A program made the position numbers and the translations under genes. Below, in pieces: positions 28,646 to 58,020 of a stretch of 64,000 nucleotides of DNA. The notes beneath the pieces are model-generated. The model worked only from the letters and a program-made list of their open reading frames with translations. It was not told the origin of the DNA and ran no database searches. Each line of letters begins with the position of its first letter. The stretch's first letter is position 1. The DNA comes from a bacterium (GTDB lineage: Bacteria > Bacteroidota > Ignavibacteria > UBA10030), in contig JAZDJN010000056.1 of assembly GCA_043803945.1 (NCBI GenBank), positions 1-64,000 of the forward strand, given 5' to 3'.

Positions 28646-28708
28646 AATGGTGTACTCCTTAGTTAGAATTGTATAAGAACTCTCCAGTGACATTAGTTAG
28701 TTCATTGA

Positions 28709-30163: not shown

Positions 30164-30224
30164 ACAGCAATCTCCATTGTTCCGTTAATGTTACTATGAA
30201 TAAAATCCCTTTTGGGTTTCCAGT

Positions 30225-31496
30225 TTATTGAAACCTCTCCTTGTAGGCCCATAGTCCCAGCGCAGGATTGGAGATGTAAAAAACCTCCTCTCCATCCGGC
30301 AATAGATTGAAACCATCTTTGAGTATTTCAGGATTGTATCGTTTGAGCATGTCCGGCAAATTGGCATAGCTAAAATTCACACCTTCAATTTCCTGCCGGC
30401 TCAAGAAGCCCGGACAGTACGTTATGCTAAACCTGTTCTCTGACGATCCATGGATAAGGTGTGCCGCCGCGCTGAGACTATTTTTCAAGTCCTCATTCTC
30501 TTCGACAAATCTGAGCACCTCGGGAGTCGTTTTGTAACCGTATTTTCTGATCAAACCATCGATCTCCTTATCTTCGCCAAACTCTTTCAATCCGGGTGCA
30601 AGCACAATGAGTTCTCCCTCATCGGCAATAACCATACGGGTTCGATAGATGCTCTTGTTGCCAAGCCAGGTACTTTTGAATTCATGCGGATCGAGATAGA
30701 CGACCACTTTCTTCAACGGGCTTTCCATCATCTCAAAGTTTACCTGGAGCGACAACTCGGAGGCACACTTGAAGCATTCTTCATCATCACCGATGTAAAG
30801 CCCTTTCATCACAAGAGAGCCATGCTCATCCTTTCCGATCACTGTCTGAACATAGACGATCGGAAGGTGTTTTGCAAAATGTCCGGAAGCATAATTGAGC
30901 ACCCGCCGAACCGGCGTGTCAGCGCGGCCCATCATCCGCTCCATCCCATAGACAGCACCGAGGAAATGACTCTTGTTGATCCCCTCACGCCCGCCTGTGC
31001 CGACAAAGATATTCTTGTTGTAATTTGCCATGCCGATCACTTCATGGGGTACAACCTGGCCGAGCGAGAGAATGAGATCATAGCCGCCTTCCACGAGAAG
31101 TCGGTTTACCTGCGCGGGCCATGGGTAATTCACCTTTCCTTCCGACACCTCAAAAAGAAAACTTGCCGGAACCTCACCGAGTGTGACCAGGTCTTCCCGC
31201 CAGCGATGAACTCTGAATAAATCTTTCGGTACACTGCCGAACATCGTTTCGATCTGGTCTTCCGTCATCGGCGAATGTGTGCCGAGAGCAGGCAGGATGT
31301 CTGTCAACCGATTCCCGAAATAGTCGTAGGAATATCTCGTCAGTTCACCAGCCCGTGAATGAAAGCGTGTAATATCAGGTGGAATGGCCAGCACCTTATT
31401 CCGCTTCCCCATCTTCTCGAATGCAGAATACAATCCCTCCCGAATATCACCTTCGGTCAACGCCGAGGTGACAGATCCCTTTGCATAGTAGAGCAT
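30225..31496 (-). CDS. LarA (lactate racemase) family nickel-pincer epimerase, putative D-mannonate/D-gluconate 2-epimerase
   Basis: PPDITR, ALGTH, VPHEVIGMANYNK, SH and NK motifs match the LarA catalytic and cofactor residues. Substrate inferred from context. Confidence 0.75.
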   Translation of the reverse strand: MLYYAKGSVTSALTEGDIREGLYSAFEKMGKRNKVLAIPPDITRFHSRAGELTRYSYDYFGNRLTDILPALGTHSPMTEDQIETMFGSVPKDLFRVHRWREDLVTLGEVPASFLFEVSEGKVNYPWPAQVNRLLVEGGYDLILSLGQVVPHEVIGMANYNKNIFVGTGGREGINKSHFLGAVYGMERMMGRADTPVRRVLNYASGHFAKHLPIVYVQTVIGKDEHGSLVMKGLYIGDDEECFKCASELSLQVNFEMMESPLKKVVVYLDPHEFKSTWLGNKSIYRTRMVIADEGELIVLAPGLKEFGEDKEIDGLIRKYGYKTTPEVLRFVEENEDLKNSLSAAAHLIHGSSENRFSITYCPGFLSRQEIEGVNFSYANLPDMLKRYNPEILKDGFNLLPDGEEVFYISNPALGLWAYKERFQ

Positions 31497-31511
31497 TCGT
31501 TGCTTCCCTTC

Positions 31512-32597
31512 TTATCGTTTAATCCTTGCACTGCCGCCACCCATCACATGCCGAAGTTCTTCCATTGTAACCATACTTGTATCGCCGCGGGTCGATTGAA
31601 GCAGAGCGCCATGCGCCGTTCCCATTTCGACACACTCCTGCGGCGGCATCCCCTGCAGCAAGCCATAAATGAATCCGCTGCAGAAACCATCGCCGCCGCC
31701 GACACGATCTTCAACCTCAAGATTTTTATAGTTTCGTGATTCGTAGAACACACCGTTATAATACATGATGGCCGACCAGTTATTGACCAGTCCGCTAATA
31801 ACTTCGCGGAGGGTCGTACCGACCGCCTGGATATTCGGATATGCGGCAACAACTTTTTTTACCATCGCTTTGTATCCATCGACCGGCAGCAAATTGAGAT
31901 GTTTATCGGCACCTTCAACTTCAAATCCAAGCACCTTTTGAAAATCTTCTTCGTTCCCGATGAGTACATCGATATAGGGAACAAGCTTCTTCGTCACGTC
32001 AATGGCTTTCTTGCTTGACCAAAGCTTCGAACGGAAATTAAGATCGTAACTAACGATAGTCCCGGCCTCATGCGCTGCTTTCATGGATTCAAGTGCGACC
32101 TTGGCGCAACTGTCGCTGAGTGCGGTAAAGATACCGCCCGTGTGGAACCAGCGAACTCCCCTTTTTGTGAACACCTTCTTCCAATCAACATCACCCGGTT
32201 TCATATGGGCAGCCGCAGTATGGCCGCGATCATAGAGGGTGACACTTGCCCGGACACCAATGCCCACTTCGGTAAAGTTCAGGCCGATTCGGTCTGCACG
32301 GCCCGACCCATCATACGGCACCCAGACAACTTCGCTGATGTCCATGCCGCTGGTGCGTGCGTGATTTTTAATGAAGTGCCCAAGGGGATTATCTACCAGG
32401 CGCGAGACCCAGCTTGTCCGAAACCCATAACGGGCAAGAGCATACGTGACATTATATTCACCGCCACCGGCATAAGCTTCAAATAGTGGTGTGAGCTCGA
32501 TGCGTTGGTGACCCGGAGGGCTGAAGCGAATCATGCATTCCCCGAGCGAGAGAACATCGAATTCATTTTCTGAAGCAGATTTTATTTTCAATGACAT
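31512..32597 (-). CDS. PfkB-family sugar-acid kinase (KdgK-like), copy A
   Basis: LGECMIR, GGGEYNV, SYDLNFRSKLW, GNEED, DRVGGGDGF. Confidence 0.9.
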   Translation of the reverse strand: MSLKIKSASENEFDVLSLGECMIRFSPPGHQRIELTPLFEAYAGGGEYNVTYALARYGFRTSWVSRLVDNPLGHFIKNHARTSGMDISEVVWVPYDGSGRADRIGLNFTEVGIGVRASVTLYDRGHTAAAHMKPGDVDWKKVFTKRGVRWFHTGGIFTALSDSCAKVALESMKAAHEAGTIVSYDLNFRSKLWSSKKAIDVTKKLVPYIDVLIGNEEDFQKVLGFEVEGADKHLNLLPVDGYKAMVKKVVAAYPNIQAVGTTLREVISGLVNNWSAIMYYNGVFYESRNYKNLEVEDRVGGGDGFCSGFIYGLLQGMPPQECVEMGTAHGALLQSTRGDTSMVTMEELRHVMGGGSARIKR

Positions 32598-32631
32598 AGC
32601 CTTCCTCTGATAATATCCTCCTTGAGATTGG

Positions 32632-33720
32632 TTATCGCTGAATACGCGCCGAGCCGCCTTTCGCGAATGCCCGAACGTGTTCAACCGTTGCCATCGTCGT
32701 GTCGCCGGGGAAGGTCGTCAGCAATGCACCATGCGCCCAGCCTAATCTCACTGCTTCCTCCGGAGTCTCACCGTTCAGCAAGCCATAGATAAATCCGCCA
32801 GCAAATCCATCGCCGCCGCCAACACGATCGTAGACGTCGAGCTCGCATGTCGGAGCTGTATAGGTCTGCCCTTCCACCCATGCAACAGCACTCCAGCTAT
32901 GCCGGTTTGTTGAATGCACTTCGCGTAATGTGGTAGCAACCGCTTTTACATTCGGGTACTTCGCTGTGACGCTTCCAATCATTCCGAAAAACGCGCTTGG
33001 GTCAAGCTGTGATTTAGCGGCAACCTCGGGGCCCGGGACACCAAGTCCCTTTTGCAGGTCTTCTTCATTGCCTACCAGCACATCGACATTTTCAACAATG
33101 CGTTTAATCGTATCGACAGCTTTTTGCTGGCCGCCCCAAATACTCCAGAGTTTCTCGCGGTAGTTTAGATCGAAACTCACGATTGCACCCACCTCTTTCG
33201 CCGCTTTCATGCCTTCAATAATGACCTCGCCGGTTGTGGCTGAAAGTGAAGCAAAGATGCCGCCGCTATGAAACCATTTGACCCCTCCGGTAAAGATGTT
33301 TTTCCAGTCAAAATCGCCGGGCTTTAATTGTGCTGCCGCTTCATTCGATCTGTTATAAAAAACGACCGGAGCACGCACGCCTAATCCCTGATCGCTATAG
33401 ACGGTTGCCATATTGGGCCCGTTGACACCGTTATGTTTGAAGTGTTTATAGAATGGCTTTACTCCCATGGCACGCACCCGCTCGGCGATGAGATCGCCAA
33501 TCGGATAGTCGACCATGGCGGTGGCAATCGCTGTGTTCATGCGGAAGCAATCAGAAAGATTTGCTGCCACGTTAAACTCGCCGCCGCTCACATGGATGCG
33601 GCATTTGGTTGCTTTCCGGAATGGAACGATTCCGGGATCCAGCCGATGCACACACGCACCAAGAGAGACCAGATCGAGCACTGCCGTTTGATTAATCTTC
33701 AAACCATGATTCATTCCCAT
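32632..33720 (-). CDS. PfkB-family sugar-acid kinase (KdgK-like), copy B
   Basis: SGGEFNVA, SFDLNYREKLW, GNEED, DRVGGGDGF. Confidence 0.9.
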   Translation of the reverse strand: MGMNHGLKINQTAVLDLVSLGACVHRLDPGIVPFRKATKCRIHVSGGEFNVAANLSDCFRMNTAIATAMVDYPIGDLIAERVRAMGVKPFYKHFKHNGVNGPNMATVYSDQGLGVRAPVVFYNRSNEAAAQLKPGDFDWKNIFTGGVKWFHSGGIFASLSATTGEVIIEGMKAAKEVGAIVSFDLNYREKLWSIWGGQQKAVDTIKRIVENVDVLVGNEEDLQKGLGVPGPEVAAKSQLDPSAFFGMIGSVTAKYPNVKAVATTLREVHSTNRHSWSAVAWVEGQTYTAPTCELDVYDRVGGGDGFAGGFIYGLLNGETPEEAVRLGWAHGALLTTFPGDTTMATVEHVRAFAKGGSARIQR

Positions 33721-42272: not shown

Positions 42273-43841
42273 TCAGGAATTTAATTGCCTGAGCGGCTTG
42301 AGATGGCGTTCAAAATGTTTAATAAGACATTGATAGTGCACCTCTTCGTTCTTCTTCAGACACTCCATAAGGCGATCTTGAAAGATCAGGCGGCCGTGCT
42401 CATCTTTCGAGGAGAGAATCGTACCAAAGGTCACATGCAGAATCTGACGGGCATTCTCTTCCATTAACAATGATTGCAGTTCAGCATCCGTGTACTCACA
42501 GGCTCGCTTCATTTTTGCAATCTCGGCTGTCACATGATACGATTGCCGGTCATTCTGATAGTGTGCTCGGGCATAGTCGAGAATTTCCCTGAAGAGCTGC
42601 GGTTCTGCGATTGCGATGGCACGCAGCGCTTCGAGCCAGCTTGTGCCGGCAGTTTTGACATGCACCGCACCGGATTTCAATGAACCGACAGCTTCATAGA
42701 CAAGGAACTTATCGCTTCCCGAATGAATACTGATTTTGTACGGACCGGAATATTGGGCAATCAGCAGATGTTTTCGATACTCTTTCGTAAACTCGCAAAG
42801 GTCGCCTTTATATTCGATTCCCTTTTCGAAATCACCAATGAACCGCGGCGCCAGACTGACCAGCGTTATGTGAAGACGCTTACATTCATTTGCAATAATA
42901 AAATGTTCAAGCGGAGATGTCGGCGTATCGGTCTCATCCACCGAAAGCTCAATTTCGTACGGTTTGCTTCCCCATTTCTGTTTCAGGTGATTGGCAAGTA
43001 CAACTGTCTGCGCGATGGCAGCGCCATATTTTACCAATGCCCTGAGGACTAGATCGGTTTCTGGAACGAGCACAAAATCGTCGGCAAACGTGAATTGCTG
43101 CCCGGCATAGCGGTCAACCATGGATTCCAGCGAATCCTGCAGCAGGTTCCATGGCAATGCGGCGGCTCGCTGTTTCACTTCTTCCAAAGGCATCCGGGCA
43201 GCTTCATTCACTACATGAGCACCGATATCCAGGGTGAACATTGTAAATCCGACACTTGCGTAGCGGTCAATATCGGCGGAGGTTTTCAAATGATCGCCAT
43301 CCGCTCCGAAGCCGTCTTTGTATCCCTCCTGGAACACAGCCCAGGTTGCTGCATCCATAACGTCGCCGGCTTCCCGTTTTGTCCGCTCCAGCTCACGTAC
43401 GGATTGCTGTGCAAGAATCGGTTTGAAGCCGCTGCCTGTCATTGCACGAAGATGTCCGGCATTGGCAATTCCAAGACGATCGCCGCACCCGAGTGAATTG
43501 TGCAGGCCAAGGACCGTAGGGCACGTGAAGGGAAAGAGCATTCTCAATGAATCGGCATTGCGATGATGCATCGGGCAAAGTTTCACAGTCGCTGACTTAT
43601 TTCCACCTGAGTATGTGAACAATATTCCTTCGAAGAGACGGGATACTTCAGTTTCTTTTTCCTCTGTCAGAATACAGAGAAATTTTTCCGAGCCGTTCTT
43701 CCCGACAAAGATGAATGTGTTATCAACCCCCTGAACCGATTTTGGATAGACCGTCAGTTGGATCTGCGATGTGAGCGAGAGTTCAGCCGGAGTTGTGCTC
43801 TGGTTTGGATTCGGTTGTGGAAGAATATCTTGGATGCTCAT
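42273..43841 (-). CDS. uxaE: Tagaturonate/fructuronate epimerase
   Basis: GDRLG, AQQSVRE, GADGDH, ELSVDET, GDFEKGIEY, SIHSGSDKF, HVKTAGTSWLEALR. Confidence 0.93.
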   Translation of the reverse strand: MSIQDILPQPNPNQSTTPAELSLTSQIQLTVYPKSVQGVDNTFIFVGKNGSEKFLCILTEEKETEVSRLFEGILFTYSGGNKSATVKLCPMHHRNADSLRMLFPFTCPTVLGLHNSLGCGDRLGIANAGHLRAMTGSGFKPILAQQSVRELERTKREAGDVMDAATWAVFQEGYKDGFGADGDHLKTSADIDRYASVGFTMFTLDIGAHVVNEAARMPLEEVKQRAAALPWNLLQDSLESMVDRYAGQQFTFADDFVLVPETDLVLRALVKYGAAIAQTVVLANHLKQKWGSKPYEIELSVDETDTPTSPLEHFIIANECKRLHITLVSLAPRFIGDFEKGIEYKGDLCEFTKEYRKHLLIAQYSGPYKISIHSGSDKFLVYEAVGSLKSGAVHVKTAGTSWLEALRAIAIAEPQLFREILDYARAHYQNDRQSYHVTAEIAKMKRACEYTDAELQSLLMEENARQILHVTFGTILSSKDEHGRLIFQDRLMECLKKNEEVHYQCLIKHFERHLKPLRQLNS

Positions 43842-46722: not shown

Positions 46723-48414
46723 TTATCTCACCAGAAGAAGTTTGCGTGATTGCGTTCTTCCCCGCGAAACCAGTTGAGCAATATAGACTCCGGATGCGAC
46801 ATTCCGCGACTGTGTGTCTTTTCCATCCCATCGAATGGTGTAGTGGCCCGCCGGTTGCTCCCTCTGCATCAGCTCTTTCACAAGCACCCCGCGAAGATCA
46901 TAGATCCTGAGTGCCACAACGCCTTGTTTTGAGAGGGAGATAGAGATCAGCGTTTCTGGATTAAATGGATTGGGATAGTTTTGATAAAGAACAAAATCGG
47001 AAGGTACTGATCTCTCTATGCTCCCGGTCGTGGTGATCACGTTCCCGGTAACAAGGCTATTGAGATATTCTTCGAGTTTTGTATATCCTTGAGCATTTTT
47101 TAAATTCCGATCACCTGGATCGGCGGGATTGAGGCCCTGTGCCTGTTCCCATGCATCCGGCATACCGTCATGATCGGTATCCATGGGCGGTGGTGCAGTC
47201 GCCAGAAGAGGCCAGCCGCCGACATCACTTTGTGAATCGATAATTCCAGACCGTGCTCCGGTTTTTCCACCAAACAATGCCACTCCATTTTCTACTTCCC
47301 ACACTATTCGTTTGTCGATCGTATCTCGTTTCGGCAGGCTCGCTCCACCATATTTAAGGACTAACCTATATGCTACTTCTGGTTGATGTTGAACAATTGG
47401 AGTGTATGGAAACGGCTCCGTTGCTTTGATAGAATCGAACAAACTGGTGGCTACACCCTGCACCCCAAAGGCCCAATTATCTGTAGTTGCCTGAGGATAT
47501 CCATCCACATAATTCTCATTGATATACCATTTTCCATATCCATGGCTCTCTGTTGATGGATTCACGATCCTATATCTCGTTGAACCACTACTCGTGGAAG
47601 GGCCTGCCTTGTAGTAATTTGCCACAACATTGATCCTGCTTGGCTGTACTTCATTTGCTTCACCACCGTAGCAACTGTTGAATGTCCAGTTATAAACAAC
47701 ATTATTACGGTGGTCTACATTTTCTACTCCACGATCGAAACGTGGATTACGACTCGAGTGATGAGCTAATAAGTTATGATGCCATGTAGTGTTCTTCCCA
47801 CCCCAGATACCTCCATAGCCATGAGCACCTTTGACATGATGTGAGTTACGCAGACTCTCTGCAATGAAGCACCATTGAACGGTCCACTGTTCGATTCCGG
47901 AATAAGCACTCAACGTTTCATCAATCGACCAGCTGATTGAGCAGTGATCGAGGATCACATTCTTAGAGTTCTCGCCATCAAATGCATCATCATCATAGGT
48001 AGAGTCGACATCGCCCAACCGGAATCGTAGATATCTGATTATTACTTCATTCGCCTTCACCGTGAAGTTAAAATCACGGAGACAAATTCCATCGCCAGGA
48101 GCTGATTGCCCTGCAATTGTTAGGTTTCCTCTCGTGACAGATAATCGCGATTTTAATCGAATAGTACCTGAGACACGAAAGACTATTGTTCTGGGTCCAG
48201 TTTTACCAATGGCTTCGCGCAAGCTACCTGGTCCGCTGTCATTGAGATTTGTCACTTCATAGATATCGCCGCCGCGGCCTCCAACCGTATATTGACCAAA
48301 TCCCTCAGCTCCCGGAAATGCTTTCTGCTGACTATGCGAGAGTGTAGCAGTCAGAAAAATGAATTTGAAACCGAATGCAATTACAGTGAATGTATGTTGA
48401 AGTCCAAAGTTCAC
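46723..48414 (-). CDS. Pectate lyase PL1 with FlgD-like T9SS sorting domain
   Basis: AFPGAEGFG, GGRGG, TIAGQSAPGDG, DHCSISWSIDE, SRNPR, DTDHDGMPDAWE; QNYPNPFNP...WDG...ASGVY. Start uncertain (GTG). Confidence 0.92.
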   Translation of the reverse strand: MNFGLQHTFTVIAFGFKFIFLTATLSHSQQKAFPGAEGFGQYTVGGRGGDIYEVTNLNDSGPGSLREAIGKTGPRTIVFRVSGTIRLKSRLSVTRGNLTIAGQSAPGDGICLRDFNFTVKANEVIIRYLRFRLGDVDSTYDDDAFDGENSKNVILDHCSISWSIDETLSAYSGIEQWTVQWCFIAESLRNSHHVKGAHGYGGIWGGKNTTWHHNLLAHHSSRNPRFDRGVENVDHRNNVVYNWTFNSCYGGEANEVQPSRINVVANYYKAGPSTSSGSTRYRIVNPSTESHGYGKWYINENYVDGYPQATTDNWAFGVQGVATSLFDSIKATEPFPYTPIVQHQPEVAYRLVLKYGGASLPKRDTIDKRIVWEVENGVALFGGKTGARSGIIDSQSDVGGWPLLATAPPPMDTDHDGMPDAWEQAQGLNPADPGDRNLKNAQGYTKLEEYLNSLVTGNVITTTGSIERSVPSDFVLYQNYPNPFNPETLISISLSKQGVVALRIYDLRGVLVKELMQREQPAGHYTIRWDGKDTQSRNVASGVYIAQLVSRGRTQSRKLLLVR

Positions 48415-48419
48415 ATGAA

Positions 48420-49961
48420 TCACCAGGGAATCTGATACGAGAGACTGGCAATAAGATTGTTGCGAATTTCCCGATTGATACTTACGGCGTTTGACCACGT
48501 ATCGATAAACTTCATATCAGAATACTCGTAGGTCACGTTTACGCGGAGGCTGGCAATATTCATTTCGCCGCCCAGAGAATAGACTGGATACTTAATCGGC
48601 TCTCCACGTATTGCCTTCGACAATGGTTGGAAGACTTCAGCATTTTCCGAGACCCCGCCTCGAACGATGAGCCATGAATTCGCTCGATACTGTGCTCCCG
48701 CGTGCCATAAGGAAGCGGAAAGCCAGGGATTGATTTCCTGGCCGCCGGCGTCGGTGTACGTTGCCGATGAGTATGGACGAATTTCATATTCAATACCGAT
48801 GGTAAAATCGGGACGCACTGCAATTGAAACTCCCAGTGATGCGCGAAGCGGAAGGTTGATTTTATCTTCGCCGCTGGATGAGGTGGTTGAACGGAAGTGA
48901 AGCGAATCAACCCGGGAGCTTAATTTGCTCACGGTAGTAACTGAGTCCAACGATGATGATGAGGAAAATTTCCTTGTAATGACTGTCGGGGGCTTCACCG
49001 AGAATCCAGCCGTGAACGACTGGCCGGTGTACGTGCCGCCCAGTGTAAATTCCTTGCCGCTGTAATCCGATGTACCGGTTTTCGCATAGCTGAGCATCCC
49101 CTGCTTATCAAGGCGAAGCGAACTGGTAAAGAACAGCATTCTTCCGCGGCCGACCCGTACTTCACTATCGTCCGTGCTTCCTTCCAGAATCAACCCGCTG
49201 GCACCAAGTGAGAATTGATCGGAAAGAGCCACAGAGAGAGCAGCACCATAGCCTTTGATTGACCCGTCGCGTTGCTGATAGTACTGGTACCACTGCGTAA
49301 GATAGGGATTCGCATTCAGACCGGATGTGGCAATCGTTCCGTTCAGCACCGAGAGAACCGATGGAGAAAAGCAATTATTGTTCTGGTAATACCAATTGAG
49401 ATTCGCGTATTCAACGAATCCGACTCCAAGTACCACCCGAACATCCTTCAGGGAAAACGGTGCTGCGAGGAATGCTTGAACGGGGGCGCTGTTCGATTTC
49501 GACCGATTCCAGTTTGGCCCGAGGTTATCGAATGGCCGTTGAACCGAGTCGCTTTGATCGATCACACGGACCTGTGTAGTGCCGTAAAACTTTGTCGTAT
49601 CCGGATTACTGAGCAATCCTGTCGTACCCTCCACAAGGGGACTGAACGCCGAATGCGATTGTATTCCACCGTAGCGCTGATCCTGTTTACTATAGGTCGA
49701 TTGCTGCAAACCACCGAGGGATAATTGTAATCCTTGAAGCGAGCCTAGCATTGCCGGATTTGAAAACATCAGGGAGGCATCGTTTTTTATTCCCAGCATG
49801 GTACCTCCTGCTGCGCGCGACGATACCGAAGGCGTTGTTGTACGATTCAATCCCTGCATGGAAAGCGGGTTATCGTACCCTTGTGCAAATGCGTCCTGTC
49901 CAAGCACAAGACACAGACAGAACATTGCGAGATAGGCGATTGTGTTCTTTGGCTGTTTCAT
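48420..49961 (-). CDS. Outer-membrane beta-barrel, FadL/PorV/PorQ-like, with large loops
   Basis: Signal peptide; SRAAGG...ASLMFSNPAML hatch motif; amphipathic strands; aromatic C-terminus. Confidence 0.75.
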   Translation of the reverse strand: MKQPKNTIAYLAMFCLCLVLGQDAFAQGYDNPLSMQGLNRTTTPSVSSRAAGGTMLGIKNDASLMFSNPAMLGSLQGLQLSLGGLQQSTYSKQDQRYGGIQSHSAFSPLVEGTTGLLSNPDTTKFYGTTQVRVIDQSDSVQRPFDNLGPNWNRSKSNSAPVQAFLAAPFSLKDVRVVLGVGFVEYANLNWYYQNNNCFSPSVLSVLNGTIATSGLNANPYLTQWYQYYQQRDGSIKGYGAALSVALSDQFSLGASGLILEGSTDDSEVRVGRGRMLFFTSSLRLDKQGMLSYAKTGTSDYSGKEFTLGGTYTGQSFTAGFSVKPPTVITRKFSSSSSLDSVTTVSKLSSRVDSLHFRSTTSSSGEDKINLPLRASLGVSIAVRPDFTIGIEYEIRPYSSATYTDAGGQEINPWLSASLWHAGAQYRANSWLIVRGGVSENAEVFQPLSKAIRGEPIKYPVYSLGGEMNIASLRVNVTYEYSDMKFIDTWSNAVSINREIRNNLIASLSYQIPW

Positions 49962-50995
49962 TAGAATCCCACTCCTAAGCTTATCCGATGGACATTTCCA
50001 AGGTTATAATTGAGCGCTCCGTAACTATAGTCGAAGGAAAATCGTGTTGCTCCAAGGCTCTGCTTAATGCCACAGCCCGCCGAAAATCCATCAGCATCAT
50101 AATTAAATTTGTTGCCGACTCGAAGGGCAACCATTCCGGCAAATTCATATTCCATGCCAAGGTGTGCCTGTTGGGCATAATCATTGGGTTGAAAAAGATC
50201 GAACGCTACGCTGAAGCGGTTATCATCGCTCTCCATTAGAAGAGCGTTACGGCCCATCAAGTCTGCAGCGATACCGGTACGGAGTGCCATCGGAATCGAA
50301 TTTGATTCGGATGCATACTTGACGTTCGCGCCAAAATTCTGGACCGATGCCGCGAGTTGAACCGACCGGAATCCGGTGTTATACCGCAAACCGAAATCAA
50401 AGAGAACACCGTTTGCCCAGGTCTTTACTTCTTCAGCGACACCTTTACTATTAACCGCCATAACTTGCCCTCCATCATAGAGAGACTCATGAGCATACTT
50501 GACAGTCAATCCGGTAGCGAACTTATCGGTAATCTCCTGTGCGTAACTCAGGCCGATCAGATAGGCGAACGGGCGAAAGGTCTTTCCCGTCAATCCGGGA
50601 AACTCGATATCATCCTTGTAGGGTGATGTCCAGAGCGCTTCTTGAATTTCTCCAAAGTCCACGTATTGAACCTGGAGCCCGACGGATCCGAGAGAACCAA
50701 GCGAGGTTGCGAACGAGAGTGCTCCCTGTCGCGTATCAAAAATCCAATTCAGGTATGTCAGAGAAATCTCACGATCTCTCGATAAGGCAACGCCGGCTGG
50801 ATTCCAGAACACCGCTTCTGCGCCTGTTGCCCAGACACTGTATGCATCACCCAATGCGGTCGCTCGTGCACACGGCATAACCTTTAAAAATTGCATGGAA
50901 CTGCTACCGACCTTTTGCGAAAATGCCATCGGTGAGGACAATAAGATCGCAAACATCGGCAAGAGGTATAGTGTAATTTTCTTCATCGCTCTCAT
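49961..50995 (-). CDS. PorV/PorQ-family outer-membrane protein
   Basis: KVGSSSMQFLKV...ARATALGDAY...AVFWNPAG; SVQNFG; GMEY; FDYSY; HRISLGVGF. Confidence 0.88.
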   Translation of the reverse strand: MRAMKKITLYLLPMFAILLSSPMAFSQKVGSSSMQFLKVMPCARATALGDAYSVWATGAEAVFWNPAGVALSRDREISLTYLNWIFDTRQGALSFATSLGSLGSVGLQVQYVDFGEIQEALWTSPYKDDIEFPGLTGKTFRPFAYLIGLSYAQEITDKFATGLTVKYAHESLYDGGQVMAVNSKGVAEEVKTWANGVLFDFGLRYNTGFRSVQLAASVQNFGANVKYASESNSIPMALRTGIAADLMGRNALLMESDDNRFSVAFDLFQPNDYAQQAHLGMEYEFAGMVALRVGNKFNYDADGFSAGCGIKQSLGATRFSFDYSYGALNYNLGNVHRISLGVGF

Positions 50996-51005
50996 GTCCT
51001 TTATT

Positions 51006-53363
51006 TCAATGAATGATGACAAATTTACCTGTTGCCCGGGTTCCTTCATCAAGATCTTCTACAACGTAGAAGTACACTCCGGCGGCAATACGCTGACTAT
51101 TTCGCGAAATCTGAAACCACTCATGCGAATAGACATTTGCCGTATGCTCAATTGTTCCAACCAGTTGTCCGCTATAGGAGAAAATCCGAATCACCGCATT
51201 CTTCGGCAGGCCATAAAATCCGATCTTATCGTTAATGTCCCCTTCTTTGGTTGATCCTCCAAAACTGCTGGAGAGAATGAGCGGATTCGGAGCAACATAA
51301 ATTTTTCCACCCAAGTGTTCTACCGCCCCTTTTTGTGTTGAGTGGTAGGTAATATTGGTGTATCCACTCTTCCCGCCAACAGAATCGACAGAAAGAACAC
51401 AGTAGTAATAGTTCTCGCTTAAAAGACTCTGCGTGTCCTTGAAGACATACATATCGGGATATTTTTCATCTTTGTTGTAATAGCGCGGATCTCGTATCCC
51501 GACACTGTCCAGCCGTGTCCAGGGGCCTAATCCATCTGGTGATTTCATGACGAGGTAGTGACTTAATCCGGAGCGAATTCTGCCAAGAGCCGCTGCTGCT
51601 TTAATAGCCGGCATCGAGGTGAAGCTTTCAACCTGCGGTCCCCAAACGATTTTATTCTTGACATCCGCCGCATCATAAACATTCAAGACAGGCGCGGGAA
51701 ATGGTATATGGATCTTGGATACACCATACAAGCCGGTCGCGGGAGAATTTTCCGGTTTAAATTGAACTGCATCATAGTCAACCAGCGGTCCGCCGGTATA
51801 GATCTGAATGGCTCTATCAGCAACGTCACGCAGAGAAATGACCGGGGATGGATCGACATTCGAGATTTTTCCTGCAACATACCAGGGAAGTTTATGGGCA
51901 TTGTTTTTCAAATAGGCGCTTCCCATGTAGTTGATGCCCGATAAGCCCGAGAGGCCGGGGTAGGTAAGCGAATCATACCAGGAGATCACCGGCTCATAAT
52001 ATGCTGTCGACGATGAGAACGCTCCCCCCGCATCCCGGTAGACCGTGTCTGCCGCAGTACCGGGTCCGTACCCGACGAGCGTGGCAATTGCAAACTTGAG
52101 GTGTTTCCCCCTGGGAAACACATAGGGTCCGAACGATGTATAGTGCATCGATGTTTGTGTATAGTTGCCGGAGGAGAGAGCTCTCGGTTTTGCACGGCCC
52201 TGCCAGTAATTCATGAGTTCGAGATTCACGGCAGGATTTTGTGCTATCGACGGTCCATAGTACGTTGCCCAATTTACTGAATCTGTTTTGACGGTACTCG
52301 TTGTTGATTTGAAATCAAACGACGTGTAGGGACGGGAGGAGAGTGTCAGTCCGTACGCAATAGCCCGCGAGGCACTTAAATCGACGTTTCTGTTCGGTAC
52401 TTGTTGAGCCGTATAAGGCTGTAAAAATTTGCCATTCTGATCCCACGCGCGAGCAGTATCCGTGAGTGTATAGCTTGTCATGCTCTTGGGCTGTAAATTT
52501 TCATAATCATAATGGAGCACCATCAATCCCACACCTTGTGGTGAATTCAATCCGCCGCGATTACCCTCAGTCGACCAGGCATTAAAGTATGTCGGATCGG
52601 GAAATCCATCTCTGCTGTGCACATACAACATGTACCGGGTAAAATTATAACGTCCATACACTTCACGCGCGCGGGTCGTTACAGAAGACTCGTTCCAGAC
52701 ACCATACCTTCTCTGTATTCCTAACGCCGAAGGGCAGAGACCATTGAAAAACATCACCATTCCGTCGGTATAATCCACAGCATCGGTGTTGACGATATCG
52801 TATTCAATAATAATGAATGCATCGTACCCGGGAAAACTCCATGCGCGGCTGGTTTGAGTAATCAAAAGTTTCATCGGGTTCGTGGTGGTATACTGTGTGA
52901 CAATGATTTCTTCAGCCTCATTAGGATTGTATGCAGTATTGAGGCTGCCATCTGCTAATAAAGGGTAGTTTTCCGTTCGGGTAATACTCCCGGGAATAGA
53001 GTATATACCTGCAATTGTTGTCGCATTGCCGGATCCGTCGGTAATTCCACCGCATGCTTTCGCAACATAGGTGCCGTTAATCTTTGCCTGAAACAGGATG
53101 CCGCCTCCGAAAGAATTCTGATGCCCCCAGTACACAATCTGATTCAGCGTTTGTCGTGAATTGGGGGGCCACTCCAGGGAAGAGGTCCCCTCCGGCAGAC
53201 CGACCGTCGTCGAATTGCTGGCTTCAGTAGCTCTTCCTATCTCCCCGGTGTTGTAAATCGTCTGGCGCACCATGCTGCGCGTATGCGTCTTGAAATCGCG
53301 CTGCGATACGGCAAGAGACGAAACCAGGGCCATCATGAGAAAAATATATACGAGATGTTTCAT
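51006..53363 (-). CDS. Large secreted protein (785 aa) of unknown function with an atypical T9SS-like C-terminal domain
   Basis: Signal peptide MKHLVYIF with AGGA RBS; C-terminus IYVAPNP...IGFYGLP...IRIFSYSGQLV...IAAGVYFYVV...GKFVIIH. Confidence 0.8.
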   Translation of the reverse strand: MKHLVYIFLMMALVSSLAVSQRDFKTHTRSMVRQTIYNTGEIGRATEASNSTTVGLPEGTSSLEWPPNSRQTLNQIVYWGHQNSFGGGILFQAKINGTYVAKACGGITDGSGNATTIAGIYSIPGSITRTENYPLLADGSLNTAYNPNEAEEIIVTQYTTTNPMKLLITQTSRAWSFPGYDAFIIIEYDIVNTDAVDYTDGMVMFFNGLCPSALGIQRRYGVWNESSVTTRAREVYGRYNFTRYMLYVHSRDGFPDPTYFNAWSTEGNRGGLNSPQGVGLMVLHYDYENLQPKSMTSYTLTDTARAWDQNGKFLQPYTAQQVPNRNVDLSASRAIAYGLTLSSRPYTSFDFKSTTSTVKTDSVNWATYYGPSIAQNPAVNLELMNYWQGRAKPRALSSGNYTQTSMHYTSFGPYVFPRGKHLKFAIATLVGYGPGTAADTVYRDAGGAFSSSTAYYEPVISWYDSLTYPGLSGLSGINYMGSAYLKNNAHKLPWYVAGKISNVDPSPVISLRDVADRAIQIYTGGPLVDYDAVQFKPENSPATGLYGVSKIHIPFPAPVLNVYDAADVKNKIVWGPQVESFTSMPAIKAAAALGRIRSGLSHYLVMKSPDGLGPWTRLDSVGIRDPRYYNKDEKYPDMYVFKDTQSLLSENYYYCVLSVDSVGGKSGYTNITYHSTQKGAVEHLGGKIYVAPNPLILSSSFGGSTKEGDINDKIGFYGLPKNAVIRIFSYSGQLVGTIEHTANVYSHEWFQISRNSQRIAAGVYFYVVEDLDEGTRATGKFVIIH

Positions 53364-53394
53364 TTGGGATTCCTGCATAATGGTAAATGATTTT

Positions 53395-56388
53395 TCAAAA
53401 TTCAAATGACAGTCCGACAAAGAACGATCGCGGTGCATTATCGTACAGCAGGAACGAGTGATCCACGGCGAACGCGCCTCCAAGATTCTGATCATCCCAG
53501 TAGAGTACGCCATTATTCGGATCATTGAATGCATAAGTGGAGTACCTCCGAGTAGCCTCATTCTGATCAATCTTGTTCGCCGTATTGAACAAATACGAAT
53601 AGTTGAAAATTTTAGTGCTGAACAAATTAAACACTTCGACATAGAGCGTTGCAGAGACCCCGATGAGGTTTTTCATAGCCTTCGAAACTCGGAGATTTGT
53701 GTTATATTCAGTCGGTGAACGAAGGCCGTTCACGTCGCTCGCATCATCGGGCGAAGTGTAAGGACGTCCGCTGCGGCCAAACGAATTGATCGAGATGACC
53801 ATGCTTTCTAAAGGATGGAGACCTCCTATGTCGGGACCGAATTGCTCAGGCGTCATGTATGCAATATTGACGATGACATTGTGCGTCCGGTCAAAGTTCA
53901 ACAGCACATCCTTGATCGGAACTTTCGACACCACATCCGTCGAAATGACACCTGAGAGATTCTTAGTAATTGCCATGGGAGCGTTCGACGAGGAAGAGCT
54001 CTTTCCAGTCGCCACGCTGAATTGATAGTTGATCGATCCTGTAATGGCACCTCTCCTTTTTGCCAGTGAGACCCGGAAACCACGAACGTCTGCGTAGTCT
54101 CTATTAAAGAAGGAGTAGTAGCTTGTACCAGTCGAAAGGTTTGTGAAGACCGCTTGTTCGATCAGATCCTTGATGTCTTTGTAATAGCCGCTGACATCAA
54201 GTGTAAATCCCGCATCTAATCCTTGCATGAGACCGATATCGTACTGATTCGTCACCTGCGGCTTGAGCCTCGGATTGCCCAGGCTTGAGACCGAAGCAGG
54301 AGATGGCGGGGGCGGCATTTTCTGTGTCGAGCCGATGACATTTTGAAATGAGGGCCGCTGCATAAACGTTCCATAGTTCAGGTGGAAGACTGTCCCCACC
54401 GAAACGGGAAATGAAACACCGACGCGAGGCTGCAGCCGGGCAATGGGTTTGGATTTTACTTTTGGAGCCAGGTTGGCGTCATAGTTCAGCGTCGGTCTGC
54501 CCAATGAATCGCGCAGGACGAATGGATCGAACTCATCGAAATAGTACTCATTATTGGAGTCCCACACATCCCAGCGCATGCCGACATTGGCAATCATCCC
54601 CTCGAATTCCATCTTATCCTGAACGTAGAGTCCCAGTTCATAGGGCTGTCCTGTATATTTTGTTACTGAGATGCTGCCCTTCGATTTGATATTCCCCACA
54701 TTATCGCGGCTAATTTCATAATAGTTCGCCTGAATACCCGTATTGAGGAGATGGGACTTCGTCACCTGACTGGTAATCGATGCATCCAGGGATGCAGTAA
54801 AAGTTTTATCATTGGTAAAATTACCCAGAGTATTTGCGAGGTAAAAGAATGTCTTACCGACCATGTTCTGGTAGTACATGAAATTCATCTCTCGAGTAAT
54901 AATAGCCGTGCCGGTTTCTGTATTGCGTACCTGATCAGAGACCGTGTCGTACCACGGAGACGTACCCAGCCTGTTTGTTGTCCGCAGAGTGTTCAATTTA
55001 ATTTCATAGAAGGTGCTCGGACTGACCGCCTGCGTAAACCGGGCTCCAAGCTGAAGGTTGGTTCGTTCCTGATACGCGATTCCCAGAATCCTGTCCCAGG
55101 TCCATTGATAGAATCCTGTTCCGCCTCCTAAGATATTGTCAAATTCGTACTGATAGCCGCCGCTCAGTCTGAGTGCGGCACTCGCACCCAGGTCGAATAC
55201 AATATTTCCCATCACCTGTTGCTGCTTGTTCGGCTCTTCAGTCATAACGATGGAATTGTCATTCTCCGAGCGAAGGGCGAGAAAAGCCGTTACCCCTGAG
55301 GCGAGCGGACCGCCGAAGGCGCCTTCAATACTATAGTCAATTTGCGATTTCCAGTATTTGCTGTTCAAGTCTTTTGCTGTCGCACTTTTCCAAAGAGTCT
55401 GTGCAGCCTGGAGCATGACCGTCGAATCACCGCCGAAGTCCGAAGCAGTCCATCCAAGAATCGATTTATATCCTGTTGTTGCATCTCCATTCTTCCAGAA
55501 GTTCGGATCGGCAAGCTTTTGGAGGTAGGGCTGTGCGTTTTCGTCGTAGACGCTGGGGCCGAAATATTTTAACCCGGGTGCTCGCGCCCGCACCTCAAAC
55601 TTCGAACGCCATTTATCCGACTTTCCTTCTTTCATGGTTATGTTGACCACACCCGATTGTGCATTTCCATACTGGGCGCCAAAACCGCTGGTAATCACCT
55701 CTACTTCTTCGACAGCGCTCATAATTGGTCTGAAGGCGGCGGAGGCATCGAGCGGATTTGTGATTCCCATGCCCTGTAACATGTAATACTCTTCATTGGC
55801 GCGGCCGCCGCGAAAGTGACCGTCGGTAATATCTGCCGCTAAACCAATAACATCGTTCACGTCCCTCATACCCGCGAGCGCCTGCACTTCATCACCGCGG
55901 ATGATTGTACTCGTGGACGTTTTTTCCCGTTCCACATCCGGGCGTGTTGCCTGAATGATCACCGCTTCCTTCTCAACCGCTGATGATTTCAATTTGAAGT
56001 CTGCGTTGGTGGTTCGTCCGGAATTTACGATAAGGTCACGCTGGACAACTTTTTCATAACCGATGATGGAAGCCTGCAGGTCGTACTTCCCGGGCGGGAT
56101 ATTGAGAATAAAGTAGGTTCCTTCCACGTCTGTCACTGCTCCCAGTTTTGTACCGAGGAGCATGACATTCGCACCAATCAACGATTCTCCAGTATCAGCA
56201 TCCTTAATGCTTCCCGACAACTTTCCGGCAGTTTGCGCCGTCAACATATTCAACGCAAAAAGAACCAGGAGAACAACACTGAAAATCTTAATGACTCTCC
56301 ATGGTAATACTTGAGGTTGTACATACGATGGCTGCAATTTTTTCTTGCACCCCGCATGCACTGATTGCAGGTAAGGATTCTTTGTCAT
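53395..56388 (-). CDS. TonB-dependent transporter (non-SusC type)
   Basis: CarboxypepD-like N-domain; HFRGGR, GFGAQYGNAQSGVVNI plug; QPRVGVSFP, GNPRLKP; ends in SFEF; TAAGGAG RBS. Confidence 0.95.
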   Translation of the reverse strand: MTKNPYLQSVHAGCKKKLQPSYVQPQVLPWRVIKIFSVVLLVLFALNMLTAQTAGKLSGSIKDADTGESLIGANVMLLGTKLGAVTDVEGTYFILNIPPGKYDLQASIIGYEKVVQRDLIVNSGRTTNADFKLKSSAVEKEAVIIQATRPDVEREKTSTSTIIRGDEVQALAGMRDVNDVIGLAADITDGHFRGGRANEEYYMLQGMGITNPLDASAAFRPIMSAVEEVEVITSGFGAQYGNAQSGVVNITMKEGKSDKWRSKFEVRARAPGLKYFGPSVYDENAQPYLQKLADPNFWKNGDATTGYKSILGWTASDFGGDSTVMLQAAQTLWKSATAKDLNSKYWKSQIDYSIEGAFGGPLASGVTAFLALRSENDNSIVMTEEPNKQQQVMGNIVFDLGASAALRLSGGYQYEFDNILGGGTGFYQWTWDRILGIAYQERTNLQLGARFTQAVSPSTFYEIKLNTLRTTNRLGTSPWYDTVSDQVRNTETGTAIITREMNFMYYQNMVGKTFFYLANTLGNFTNDKTFTASLDASITSQVTKSHLLNTGIQANYYEISRDNVGNIKSKGSISVTKYTGQPYELGLYVQDKMEFEGMIANVGMRWDVWDSNNEYYFDEFDPFVLRDSLGRPTLNYDANLAPKVKSKPIARLQPRVGVSFPVSVGTVFHLNYGTFMQRPSFQNVIGSTQKMPPPPSPASVSSLGNPRLKPQVTNQYDIGLMQGLDAGFTLDVSGYYKDIKDLIEQAVFTNLSTGTSYYSFFNRDYADVRGFRVSLAKRRGAITGSINYQFSVATGKSSSSSNAPMAITKNLSGVISTDVVSKVPIKDVLLNFDRTHNVIVNIAYMTPEQFGPDIGGLHPLESMVISINSFGRSGRPYTSPDDASDVNGLRSPTEYNTNLRVSKAMKNLIGVSATLYVEVFNLFSTKIFNYSYLFNTANKIDQNEATRRYSTYAFNDPNNGVLYWDDQNLGGAFAVDHSFLLYDNAPRSFFVGLSFEF

Positions 56389-56478: not shown

Positions 56479-58020
56479 TTATTTTGAATTTCTCGAACTC
56501 GATTGATAGGTTAGACGAACATTGATCATCGTCAAGTCTTTGACATTCTCGAGCACATTCGGTTCGGCAACATTGTTGAAGGTGCAATTCTCCAGGGAAA
56601 TTTTCGTTGCCGGAGAGCGATCGTAGGCCCGGATCCAAATACCAAATCGACTTTTGCTGCAAACCACATTTCTGACATCAATATTGCGGACGATGGGGGT
56701 AAAATTCCCCTTCTCTCCTTCTTCATAATAGAAATCAATTTTTACCACAGCTTCAGCAACCTGCCCGACAGTTACGTTTCGCATATAAATATTCTCGATC
56801 ACTCCGCCGCGTACGGCATTCGTCTTAATCCTAAGCACCCTATCGAGATTGGGACTGTCCATGGAACAATCTTCTGCATAAACATTCCTGACACCGCCAC
56901 TTATTTCACTGCCGATAACCACACCGCCATGGCCATTCTTCATGAAACATCCCTGGATGATAATGTTCTTGCTGGGAGCATTCACCCGCCTGCCATCGTT
57001 GTTTCTGCCCGATTTGATGGCGATACAATCATCACCATTGTTGAACTTGCAATTCTTGATGAGAACGTCCGTGCAGGATTCCGGATCGCAGCCATCGTTG
57101 TTCGGACCCTGGCCTTCTGTCGTTACACCGAGAATTGTAACATTCCGACATAACACAGGGTGAAGAAACCACATCGGTGAATCCTTAAACGTCACACCCT
57201 CGACCAGCACATTCTTACAGCGTACTGGCGTAAAAAAATTGGGGCGCAGATATGAGCCTTCGCCGAACACCCTCTGCGGTACCGGAACACCCTCTTCTCC
57301 CATTGCCCCCAGTTTTTTGCGGGCTTCATTTTGATTCTGTTTGTTCGCGCCGGTTTCCTTACTCCCTTTCCAACTCCACCAGTTTTCAACTGCACCCTGA
57401 CCGTCGAGAATTCCTTTTCCCGTAACAGCAATATTCTCCTGCTCGAACGCATAAATCAATGCCGAATAATTCATGCATTCGATTCCTTCCCAACGAGTAA
57501 AGACCAACGGGAGATACTTTTGGGATTCGGTGCTGAATTTGAGAATTGATCCTTCTGCGAGATGAAGATTGACATTACTTTTCAGGTGTATCGAACCGGT
57601 GAGATAGACTCCTTTCGGAATCACCACACGGCCTCCCTTTTCTTTTGAACACTTCTCGATTGCTTGTGCTATCGCCGCACTGCAATCTGTGACACCATCT
57701 CCCTTAGCACCGAATGCGGTGATCTCATAATCTTTTTTGGGAAACACTGGAGCAGTAATACGCTTGAGGATCGCCGGAACGACATCCCACCCCTGCAGTT
57801 TCGAACTGTGCTGCTGCGCTTGGAGCGGAATCAGGAAAACAAGGGAGAGAAGAAGAGAAAGAAGAAGGGAGAGCACATGGATTGGGATTGTTGAATGGGT
57901 GTGCGGGATGTGGAATGTTTTCATCTCCGCAGTACACCAACGTATTGTATTTGGTTTCTCGGTCATTGATGGTAAGACGCTGAAATTGTGCAACGGATAA
58001 AAATGTTTTACTCGGATCAT
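56479..58020 (-). CDS. Glycoside hydrolase family 28
   Basis: FGAKGDG, NNDGCDPES, GDDCIAIKSG, HGGVVIGSE, RIKT. Confidence 0.96.
   Translation of the reverse strand: MIRVKHFYPLHNFSVLPSMTEKPNTIRWCTAEMKTFHIPHTHSTIPIHVLSLLLSLLLSLVFLIPLQAQQHSSKLQGWDVVPAILKRITAPVFPKKDYEITAFGAKGDGVTDCSAAIAQAIEKCSKEKGGRVVIPKGVYLTGSIHLKSNVNLHLAEGSILKFSTESQKYLPLVFTRWEGIECMNYSALIYAFEQENIAVTGKGILDGQGAVENWWSWKGSKETGANKQNQNEARKKLGAMGEEGVPVPQRVFGEGSYLRPNFFTPVRCKNVLVEGVTFKDSPMWFLHPVLCRNVTILGVTTEGQGPNNDGCDPESCTDVLIKNCKFNNGDDCIAIKSGRNNDGRRVNAPSKNIIIQGCFMKNGHGGVVIGSEISGGVRNVYAEDCSMDSPNLDRVLRIKTNAVRGGVIENIYMRNVTVGQVAEAVVKIDFYYEEGEKGNFTPIVRNIDVRNVVCSKSRFGIWIRAYDRSPATKISLENCTFNNVAEPNVLENVKDLTMINVRLTYQSSSRNSK

Follow-up and report, generated by a model that had tools for sequence, protein, structure and literature searches.

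The gene set described here lies at positions 46723-56388 of a 64,000-nucleotide stretch of DNA (positions 1 to 64,000 of contig JAZDJN010000056.1, assembly GCA_043803945.1; the whole stretch is hereafter called the window) from a bacterium of the Ignavibacteria (UBA10030). It encodes a TonB-dependent transporter (TBDT), a secreted protein of 785 amino acids (aa) (hereafter the cargo) with a divergent type IX secretion system (T9SS) C-terminal domain (CTD, or tail), a PorV/PorQ-family barrel, a second barrel and a putative pectate lyase (Table 1). This module is read here as the outer-membrane capture-and-import core of a pectin (homogalacturonan) locus, in which T9SS parts would stand in the place of the SusD lipoprotein. 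Five tightly packed genes had been claimed in a preliminary description of this DNA, and all five were found, on the minus strand, with intergenic gaps of 31, 10, -1 and 5 nt in the order TBDT, cargo, PorV-like barrel, second barrel and lyase, the start codon of the second barrel sharing one base with the stop codon of the preceding PorV-like gene. The starts of the 785-aa and 344-aa proteins were backed by homologues aligning from residue 1, and the lyase was assumed to start with the GTG at 48414 (its longest open reading frame (ORF) would begin at 48498).

Table 1 Features of the module and of the adjoining upstream gene (positions in the window)
Feature	Position	Strand	Size or residues	Basis
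TBDT	53395-56388	minus	997 aa	PF13715 and PF00593 matches
Cargo, secreted, no curated family	51006-53363	minus	785 aa	AlphaFold2 (AF2) model and homologues
Cargo body, super-beta-sandwich, putative glycan-binding head	51726-53279	minus	aa 29-546	VIA-align
Cargo FN3-like domain	51327-51710	minus	aa 552-679	structure matches
Cargo C-terminal domain, divergent T9SS tail class	51009-51323	minus	aa 681-785	alignments and profile
PorV/PorQ-family 14-strand barrel	49961-50995	minus	344 aa	NF033709
Second barrel, FadL/BamG fold	48420-49961	minus	513 aa	AF2 and structure matches
Putative PL1-type pectate lyase with ordinary type A T9SS tail	46723-48414	minus	563 aa	PelZ NF041900, TIGR04183
GH28 gene of polygalacturonase type, 90 nt upstream of the TBDT	56479-58020	minus		PF00295 at 8.4e-34

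Conservation and spread of the module

The locus was searched for in one genome per species, which gave 219 encoding stretches, and 80 loci from metagenome-assembled genomes labelled Ignavibacteria, Calditrichia, KSB1, Rhodothermales and others were kept, in which the neighbouring genes were detected by tblastn with the window proteins. A TBDT was located directly upstream of the cargo in 77 of the 80 loci (including L017, where it is partial at the contig edge); the exceptions are L011, L033 and L053. Among the 62 loci whose cargo is complete and leaves 400 nt or more of room, the PorV-like barrel was located directly downstream in 61 (all but L053), and where the room was 1500 nt or more (60 loci) the second barrel followed in 59. 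The triplet of TBDT, cargo and PorV-like barrel singled out in the preliminary description is thus strongly conserved, and appears here as a quartet.

The genome of the window (5.54 Mb, 100% complete by markers) contains 18 PorV_fam genes above the cut-off, and 14 of them are linked to a TBDT and to one each of exactly 14 ORFs that carry the tail class of the cargo, so that each of the 14 members has a PorV-family gene of its own, in line with the cognate PorV paralogue that had been proposed. At 13 sites the TBDT, a family-less protein of 633-1264 aa and the PorV_fam gene stand in that order. A variant arrangement was seen on contig C87 (20000-39000, locus L084), in which the PorV-family gene comes straight after the TBDT and the tail-class protein is encoded three genes upstream. 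No private barrel accompanies the remaining CTD-like ORFs, about 79 in the genome. The canonical T9SS is encoded elsewhere in the genome, with SprA, PorU-PorV (PorV with 358 bits on NF033709), PorQ (239 bits on NF033711) and PorZ (298 bits), and the 14 barrels are therefore extras. Two further PorV_fam genes were located away from the TBDT modules, on contigs C54 (the PorQ equivalog) and C95. On contig C34 (L097, 8052-9904), a 521-aa protein whose tail is type A-like precedes two tandem, very divergent PorV-family-like genes, and no TBDT lies nearby.

When the cargo was used as the query for tblastn, full-length paralogues were detected at only two other sites of the genome, and the last 100 residues were detected at eleven more. 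The neighbours of the modules also differ from site to site (PL6-like, GH97 with heparinase II/III, GH94, M19 peptidase and racemase). By comparison of the heads with hhalign, the cargo of contig C70 was aligned with the pectin cargo along almost all of its sequence, that of C104 over the FN3 domain and the tail only, and that of C32 over the tail only. In other classes, a TBDT, a tail protein and a PorV_fam gene were found together at 20 of 20 sites, 19 of them in the standard order; these sites were chosen blind to the neighbours and came from 13 genomes, some of which are close kin, so that the sites are not independent. At one site of another class (L116) the order is TBDT, PorV-family barrel and tail protein.

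Co-variation of the parts was estimated by Mantel correlation, with r of 0.41 for tail and barrel and 0.59 for TBDT and barrel, and all parts of the module were found to co-vary. The co-phylogeny of cargo CTD and PorV suggested as a check in the preliminary description is therefore uninformative: such co-variation of all parts would be expected from the duplication of modules as units, and is not a sign of specific co-evolution.

A divergent class of T9SS tail

The tail of the cargo fails the cut-offs of both type A and type B, with sub-threshold matches to CHU_C (PF13585, 20.9 bits vs 27), TIGR04183 (19.5 bits vs 23) and the PorZ C-terminus (29.9 bits), and PF18962 (type A) was absent at E<=0.01. 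The general type A architecture is kept. The class is marked by VAPNP, by about 17 extra residues after PNP as compared with type A, by F-x-G-L-P and by an end of the form GKF-x-I-I/V-basic (GKFVIIH in the cargo). With a profile of this class, 90-127 bits were obtained for the 14 ORFs of the genome and at most 41 bits for the 79 other CTD-like ORFs. In the leave-one-out runs the 14 members were scored at 57-116 bits vs 41 for the best non-member, and one of the 14 was recovered at 82 bits before its inclusion in the profile. This separation supports the distinct CTD class that had been proposed from the cargo alone. The three other CTD proteins of the window, with QN(F/Y)PNPFNP (the lyase, a 567-aa protein at 23818-25521 and a 318-aa protein at 18576-19532), all match Por_Secre_tail and were scored at 28, 20 and 17 bits vs 115 for the cargo, in agreement with the difference first noticed between these tails and that of the cargo.

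A specific kinship of the tail with that of PorZ, which had been considered because the PorZ C-terminus (E 0.025) was the only match of the cargo in the PDB profile search, was rejected, as the PorZ and PorU tails of the genome were scored at only 32 and 37 bits on the class profile, like ordinary tails. Among 1.84 billion proteins, 5,976 representative proteins were matched by the tail profile at E<=1e-10. The few strongest matches belong to giant proteins (1,500-3,900 aa), each matched internally at 9-29 stretches, which are Ig-like repeat arrays related to the tail and not C-terminal signals; most of the remaining listed matches are single and C-terminal. The profile is a simple and specific search handle (members at 57-127 bits, other tails at most 41).

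Predicted complex of the tail with its barrel

The 344-aa barrel was matched by NF033709 with 203.6 bits (cut-off 90; aa 32-344 on model positions 2-326), and remained below both equivalogs of that family, i.e. PorV (NF033710, 68.5 bits vs 250) and PorQ (NF033711, 104 bits vs 220). By profile, it also matches the PorV of F. johnsoniae (6h3i_F) with E 2.7e-15.

A complex was predicted for aa 24-344 of this barrel (24-row alignment) and aa 548-785 of the cargo (33-row alignment). The score of the pair was 0.92 (0.92, 0.90 and 0.93 in the runs), as compared with 0.00 and 0.00 when the partner was replaced and 0.61 when the barrel was replaced. The passing mark, which is reached by 116 of 157 solved complexes and by 2 of 215 mismatched pairs, was passed, with at least 84% of the contacts shared among the runs and a pLDDT of the partner of at least 80. 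In the model, the interface is formed on the tail side by residues 687-701 (VAPNP and the start of the class insert), 726-736, 753-769 and 776-785, and on the barrel side by the invariant N-terminal segment 27-39 together with extracellular loops. A complex prediction had been suggested in the preliminary description, and for the tail and the PorV-like barrel it passes its controls (0.92 vs 0.61); binding of the tail to its co-encoded barrel is thus supported by modelling.

Cargo protein

No Pfam or NCBIfam family was found above the cut-off for the 785-aa cargo, no SusD family was found in the Pfam scan at E<=0.01, and no catalytic domain was found by the family scans, by the PDB profile search or by VIA-align, as expected from the earlier remark that the protein belongs to no recognisable catalytic family. 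Its 381 homologues are named 'hypothetical' or 'T9SS C-terminal target domain-containing protein', and are without a family assignment except for an occasional match in the tail. The N-terminus (MKHLVYIFLMMALVSSLAVSQRD), as read directly from the sequence rather than by a signal-peptide predictor, has no cysteine in the signal peptide, and the cargo is therefore not a lipoprotein.

The AF2 model of the cargo (pLDDT 73.5, pTM 0.77, from a 33-sequence alignment) consists of an all-beta sandwich, an FN3 domain and the tail, and was compared with 48,161 chains by VIA-align. The top match of the body (aa 29-546) was the N-terminal sandwich of dextran dextrinase 9ju0 (Z 15.7 over 253 aa, root-mean-square deviation (rmsd) 3.6), followed by GH94 phosphorylases (Z 14.0-14.6; 4zle 14.6, 2cqs 14.3) and GH15 proteins (1ulv, Z 13.3; 1lf6, Z 12.7). 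GH116 and GH65 were also matched, and weaker matches were obtained for PL26 (5xq3) and GH174 (Z 10.1). The best matches are the non-catalytic N-terminal domains of the GH94, GH15, GH65 and GH116 enzymes, at Z of 13-16. The FN3 domain (aa 552-679) was matched at Z of about 11 and rmsd of 2.0-2.3. With Foldseek against the PDB, only the tandem of FN3 and tail was recognised and the body was missed.

A separate observation concerns the stretch directly after the signal peptide (aa 21-44, positions 53232-53303), in which Q21, R22, H27, R29 and T39-R44 are invariant or almost so in 33 homologues while the pLDDT is below 50. This may be a candidate segment that folds only on a partner, such as the TBDT or the second barrel.

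TBDT and second barrel

The TBDT has a signal peptide, and by Pfam this is followed by a CarboxypepD_reg-like N-terminal extension at aa 57-145 and then by a TonB-dependent barrel. The protein does not belong to the SusC/RagA family, with only 44 bits on TIGR04056 vs the cut-off of 368, confined to aa 56-169 in the N-terminal extension. No solved structural relative was found beyond the N-terminal domain in the PDB search. On contig C61 (36010-38538), an 842-aa TBDT-like ORF was scored at 500 bits on the profile of the module TBDTs, as compared with at most 200 for the other non-module TBDTs; it is located about 550 nt upstream of the module TBDT of that contig on the same strand, and may be a tandem or truncated duplicate.

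Matches of the 513-aa protein by sequence were weak (BamG, 42.6 bits vs the equivalog cut-off of 250; Toluene_X, 25.5 bits vs 29.7). Its AF2 model (pLDDT 77.5) was matched best by the BamG proteins of three Bacteroidota beta-barrel assembly machinery (BAM) complexes (Z 32.1-32.7; best 9n2d_B, 352 aa, rmsd 3.7), then by FadL (3dwo and 1t16, Z 31.6 and 31.5), TodX (29.8) and PorV (6h3i_F, 26.9), with the next barrel type at 20.1. As modelled, the protein is a FadL-family barrel of the 14-strand type. It was detectable by tblastn in only 3 of the 14 modules of the genome, and is therefore an accessory rather than a core part. The suggestion that this barrel may be a further subunit is in line with the orthologous loci, where a FadL/BamG-fold barrel is kept (59/60), but would not extend to the modules of the genome as a whole.

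Relation to SusD

SusD is lacking in the locus, and no SusD match above the cut-off was found in the genome. On contig C9 (L098, 392-5131), a 509-aa protein, matched by SusD_RagB below the threshold (19.2 bits), is encoded after the only true SusC/RagA TBDT of the genome (TIGR04056, 496.7 bits), and the contig ends soon afterwards; judged from its sequence, the 509-aa protein is probably a divergent SusD. The designation of the module as SusD-less accordingly stands for the locus, while the genome carries one probable SusCD pair vs 14 modules.

For the distribution across the phylum, 301 sampled genomes were scored at E<=1e-12 for the tail class and at E<=1e-6 for SusD. The tail class was found in 158 and SusD in 163; by a hand tally, both were found in 85, the tail class only in 73, SusD only in 78 and neither in 65 (63 of them of one family). 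The anticorrelation with susD that had been expected is therefore not strict. In the class to which the window belongs, the tail class was present in 72 of 74 genomes with up to at least 16 copies, and SusD in 17 of 74 with 1-2 copies each. Of the 45 genomes of four other families, 44 have SusD and 1 has the tail class, and several families carry both. The tail module and SusD look complementary in dosage and not mutually exclusive, the sampled genomes being kin.

Pectin locus around the module

By family scans of its proteins, the window is a long minus-strand pectin utilisation locus. Its enzymes include two of glycoside hydrolase (GH) family 28, one GH88/105, two of carbohydrate esterase (CE) family 8, a GDSL esterase, one GH43 and the lyase of polysaccharide lyase (PL) family 1 type; its sugar-acid genes include UxaC, UxaE, KduI, KduD and two PfkB kinases. 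A major facilitator superfamily (MFS) transporter, a LacI-family regulator and two TBDTs are also encoded. Pectin-pathway genes were found in 34 of the 40 loci (at least 15 kb long) with a cargo at least 41% identical, vs 2 of the 8 with a more distant cargo, so that the subfamily of the 785-aa cargo tracks pectin. At 28709-33720 and 42273-43841, UxaE (tagaturonate epimerase), two PfkB kinases, a LarN-like protein and 6-phosphogluconate dehydrogenase were found beside UxaC, KduI and KduD, which we take to suggest the epimerase route of galacturonate catabolism rather than the classical UxaB/UxaA route.

The lyase was aligned with PelZ (NF041900) over aa 18-423 with E 2.2e-43 (148.7 bits vs the equivalog cut-off of 840), and was scored at 16.8 bits by Pfam Pectate_lyase_4 (cut-off 24), while its tail passes the type A model TIGR04183 with 34.2 bits (cut-off 23). 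A PL1 catalytic match was detected by tblastn in 23 of the 80 related loci. In many related pectin loci, the second barrel and the lyase are separated by the gene of a family-less protein (about 510 aa, type A tail; e.g. L020, 14820-16352; L043, 14892-16445); this gene is lacking in the window, where the lyase directly follows the second barrel. Similarity of this protein to the 567-aa CTD protein of the window is confined to the tails.

The second TBDT of the window (25643-28693, minus strand, 1016 aa) is followed by the family-less 567-aa protein with an ordinary type A tail and by no PorV-family gene. The same pairing of a TBDT with a type A tail protein was found at three other places of the genome (contigs C27, C105 and C13), and may represent a second, barrel-less mode of coupling a TBDT with a T9SS protein.

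The GH28 gene upstream of the TBDT is likely the first gene of the transcription unit, as judged from its context. The best promoter-like match of the region was located at 58183-58155, 5' of this gene, such matches not being above chance; in the scan of the region for promoters and terminators, the counts were no higher than in shuffled sequences. A look-up of sequencing runs from which expression might be read listed none. For the LacI-type operator consensus, 4 matches were found, none of them between genes at the head of the locus. Control of the five-gene block by LacI is thus putative.

Proposed mechanism

An ordinary type A cargo has its tail removed and is linked to lipopolysaccharide (LPS). 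For the module, a different course is proposed. The 785-aa protein would be exported by Sec, folded in the periplasm and carried across the outer membrane via the T9SS by using its CTD. Its tail would then be kept, in the grip of the PorV/PorQ-family barrel encoded with it, as PorZ is held by PorQ and PorU by PorV. Such tethering would place the beta-sandwich head and the FN3 spacer at the cell surface next to the TBDT, with which it may be in contact. There, the head may capture the oligogalacturonides released by the T9SS-secreted PL1 lyase and the GH28 enzymes and pass them to the TBDT, so that the cargo would be a functional analogue of SusD or of a surface glycan-binding protein. In the pectin-type modules and a few others, the FadL/BamG-fold second barrel may serve as an accessory scaffold.

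The presence of one barrel per tail protein, the constant linkage to a TBDT, the lack of a lipobox and the sandwich head fit a retained-tail principle that has been reused many times. According to the available text of PMC10202324, the tails of PorU and PorZ are retained and bound by PorV and PorQ, and shielding of tails from cleavage by cognate PorV-like barrels has been proposed there. The whole chain, in which a T9SS-delivered glycan-binding partner would be held by a private barrel beside the TBDT as a functional analogue of SusD, is given a probability of about 55%.

Several observations weigh against this reading. One control, with the barrel replaced, still reached 0.61, the alignments used were prepared for this analysis, and the passing score of the complex may reflect the likeness to solved PorV-substrate complexes (8gl* entries, 6h3i) rather than the specificity of the pair. 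In a tree of 22 PorV-family and second-barrel proteins, a star was obtained, in which the TBDT-linked barrels were not separated from canonical PorV, so that it makes no statement on the origin of the barrels. Since unrelated heads occur in other modules, glycan binding is not established for the class. The co-occurrence of the tail class and SusD in 85 of 301 genomes shows that the module is no simple replacement of SusD. Finally, the very strong conservation of the body sequence would also fit an enzyme.

Alternative explanations

The private barrel could be a dedicated shuttle only, so that the tail is cleaved and the protein released or linked to LPS as a free or loose binder, with no stable TBDT complex. 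Canonical PorV does act as a shuttle (PMC10202324, available text), the genome has PorU and PorZ to process tails, and the tail itself has the general type A architecture with weak type A matches. We nevertheless consider this explanation unlikely: 14 shuttles that are paired one-to-one with 14 cargo proteins, always beside a TBDT, are hard to explain when about 79 other CTD-like ORFs do without a private barrel, and the only private pairs described in the literature available here, PorZ-PorQ and PorU-PorV, are stable.

That the 785-aa protein is instead a surface enzyme from a carbohydrate-active family not yet described (e.g. a pectin lyase or esterase), placed at the TBDT to trim the polymer for import, is in our judgement quite unlikely. 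The locus already has the PL1 lyase, two GH28, GH105/88, two CE8 and the GDSL esterase, and the best fold matches are non-catalytic N-terminal domains, with no known catalytic domain or family detected; these points are set against an unusually strong conservation (mean column identity of 59% in 33 sequences), in which numerous charged and aromatic positions (Glu, Asp, Arg, His and Trp) do not vary, against the occurrence of the sandwich fold in enzymes (PL26 and GH174 at Z 10.1), and against the tracking of pectin loci by the cargo subfamily.

That the cassette is a device for export or envelope biogenesis, as might be thought from the Oar-type TBDT needed for protease secretion in Myxococcus (PMC6434023, available text) or from BamG, a barrel in outer-membrane assembly and the best structural match of the second barrel, is highly improbable, because the modules are part of catabolic loci that also encode matching enzymes and sugar-acid pathways together with an MFS transporter and a LacI regulator, the second barrel fails the BamG equivalog (42.6 vs 250 bits) and the cargo has a T9SS export signal of its own.

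Comparison with known systems

The proposed tethered partner of the TBDT was compared with the systems that it resembles in part. Like SusC/SusD (RagA/RagB), the module has a TBDT that carries the same N-terminal extension domain and is encoded immediately ahead of a surface partner that varies, and occurs in many copies per genome, each in a substrate-specific catabolic locus. Unlike SusC/SusD, its TBDT is far from the SusC model (44 vs 368 bits, the true SusC of the genome having 496.7), and its partner is without the SusD fold or family, is not a lipoprotein, and has a T9SS tail and a PorV-family barrel of its own. BtuB-BtuG and XusA-XusB are Bacteroidota TBDTs with a non-SusD surface lipoprotein that captures the ligand; their partners are lipoproteins, whereas the partner here would be delivered by the T9SS and anchored by a barrel.

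With PorZ-PorQ and PorU-PorV, the module shares the pairing of a tailed T9SS substrate with a FadL-type PorV/PorQ-family barrel, the contact of tail and barrel being modelled here. Those pairs are single-copy housekeeping parts of secretion, whereas here 14 extra pairs are each tied to a nutrient transporter and the barrel stays under both equivalog cut-offs. A distinct tail class beside a private outer-membrane anchorage barrel is also known from type B CTDs with a PorP/SprF-like partner, as far as described in the available text of PMC9143113 and PMC10202324. The tail here differs from type B in its CHU_C score (20.9 vs 27) and in a partner of the PorV/PorQ family, and known type B cargo proteins are adhesins, not partners of transporters. 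BamG is described in the available text of PMC12611786 as a FadL-type 14-strand barrel, bound to BamA, by which the surface lipoprotein BamH, with its carbohydrate-binding fold, is held. The second barrel, which matches BamG best (Z 32.7), may find in this pair a useful analogy for a scaffold role, but it is not a BamG equivalog and is encoded in a catabolic locus.

In the open-access papers and bioRxiv preprints searched, no description was found of a module of a TBDT, a CTD protein and a PorV-like barrel. TonB receptors or one SusCDE operon, and no such module, are mentioned in the available text of the Caldithrix (PMC5317091) and Melioribacter (PMC3534657) genome papers. The parts of the module are of known kinds; as a whole, a T9SS-delivered, barrel-anchored partner for a non-SusC TBDT would be a new form of the coupling of a TBDT with a surface partner.

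Implications

In Bacteroidota, SusC/SusD pairs serve as the accepted marker of glycan uptake, by which polysaccharide utilisation loci are located and counted in genomic and metagenomic data. If the proposed reading is true, most of the systems for uptake in Ignavibacteria, Calditrichia, KSB1 and the related bacteria of soil, sediment and groundwater go unseen in surveys based on SusCD.

In its general form, the reading states that in many lineages of the Fibrobacterota-Chlorobiota-Bacteroidota (FCB) group (Ignavibacteria, Calditrichia, KSB1, Rhodothermales-like and others), nutrient capture would follow another principle than in Bacteroidia: the T9SS would export a non-lipoprotein ligand-binding head with a fourth, uncleaved class of tail, this tail would be gripped by a FadL-type barrel of its own, docked on a non-SusC TBDT, and tail and barrel would form a portable anchor for unrelated heads that serve different substrates. 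We regard the chances of this general form as evenly balanced. If it is true, PorV/PorQ-type barrels extend from housekeeping parts of secretion to a general, multi-copy anchoring device, and a further functional class is added to the T9SS tails. The module would then be a modular alternative to the export of surface lipoproteins, and would represent a second major function of the T9SS besides secretion and gliding.

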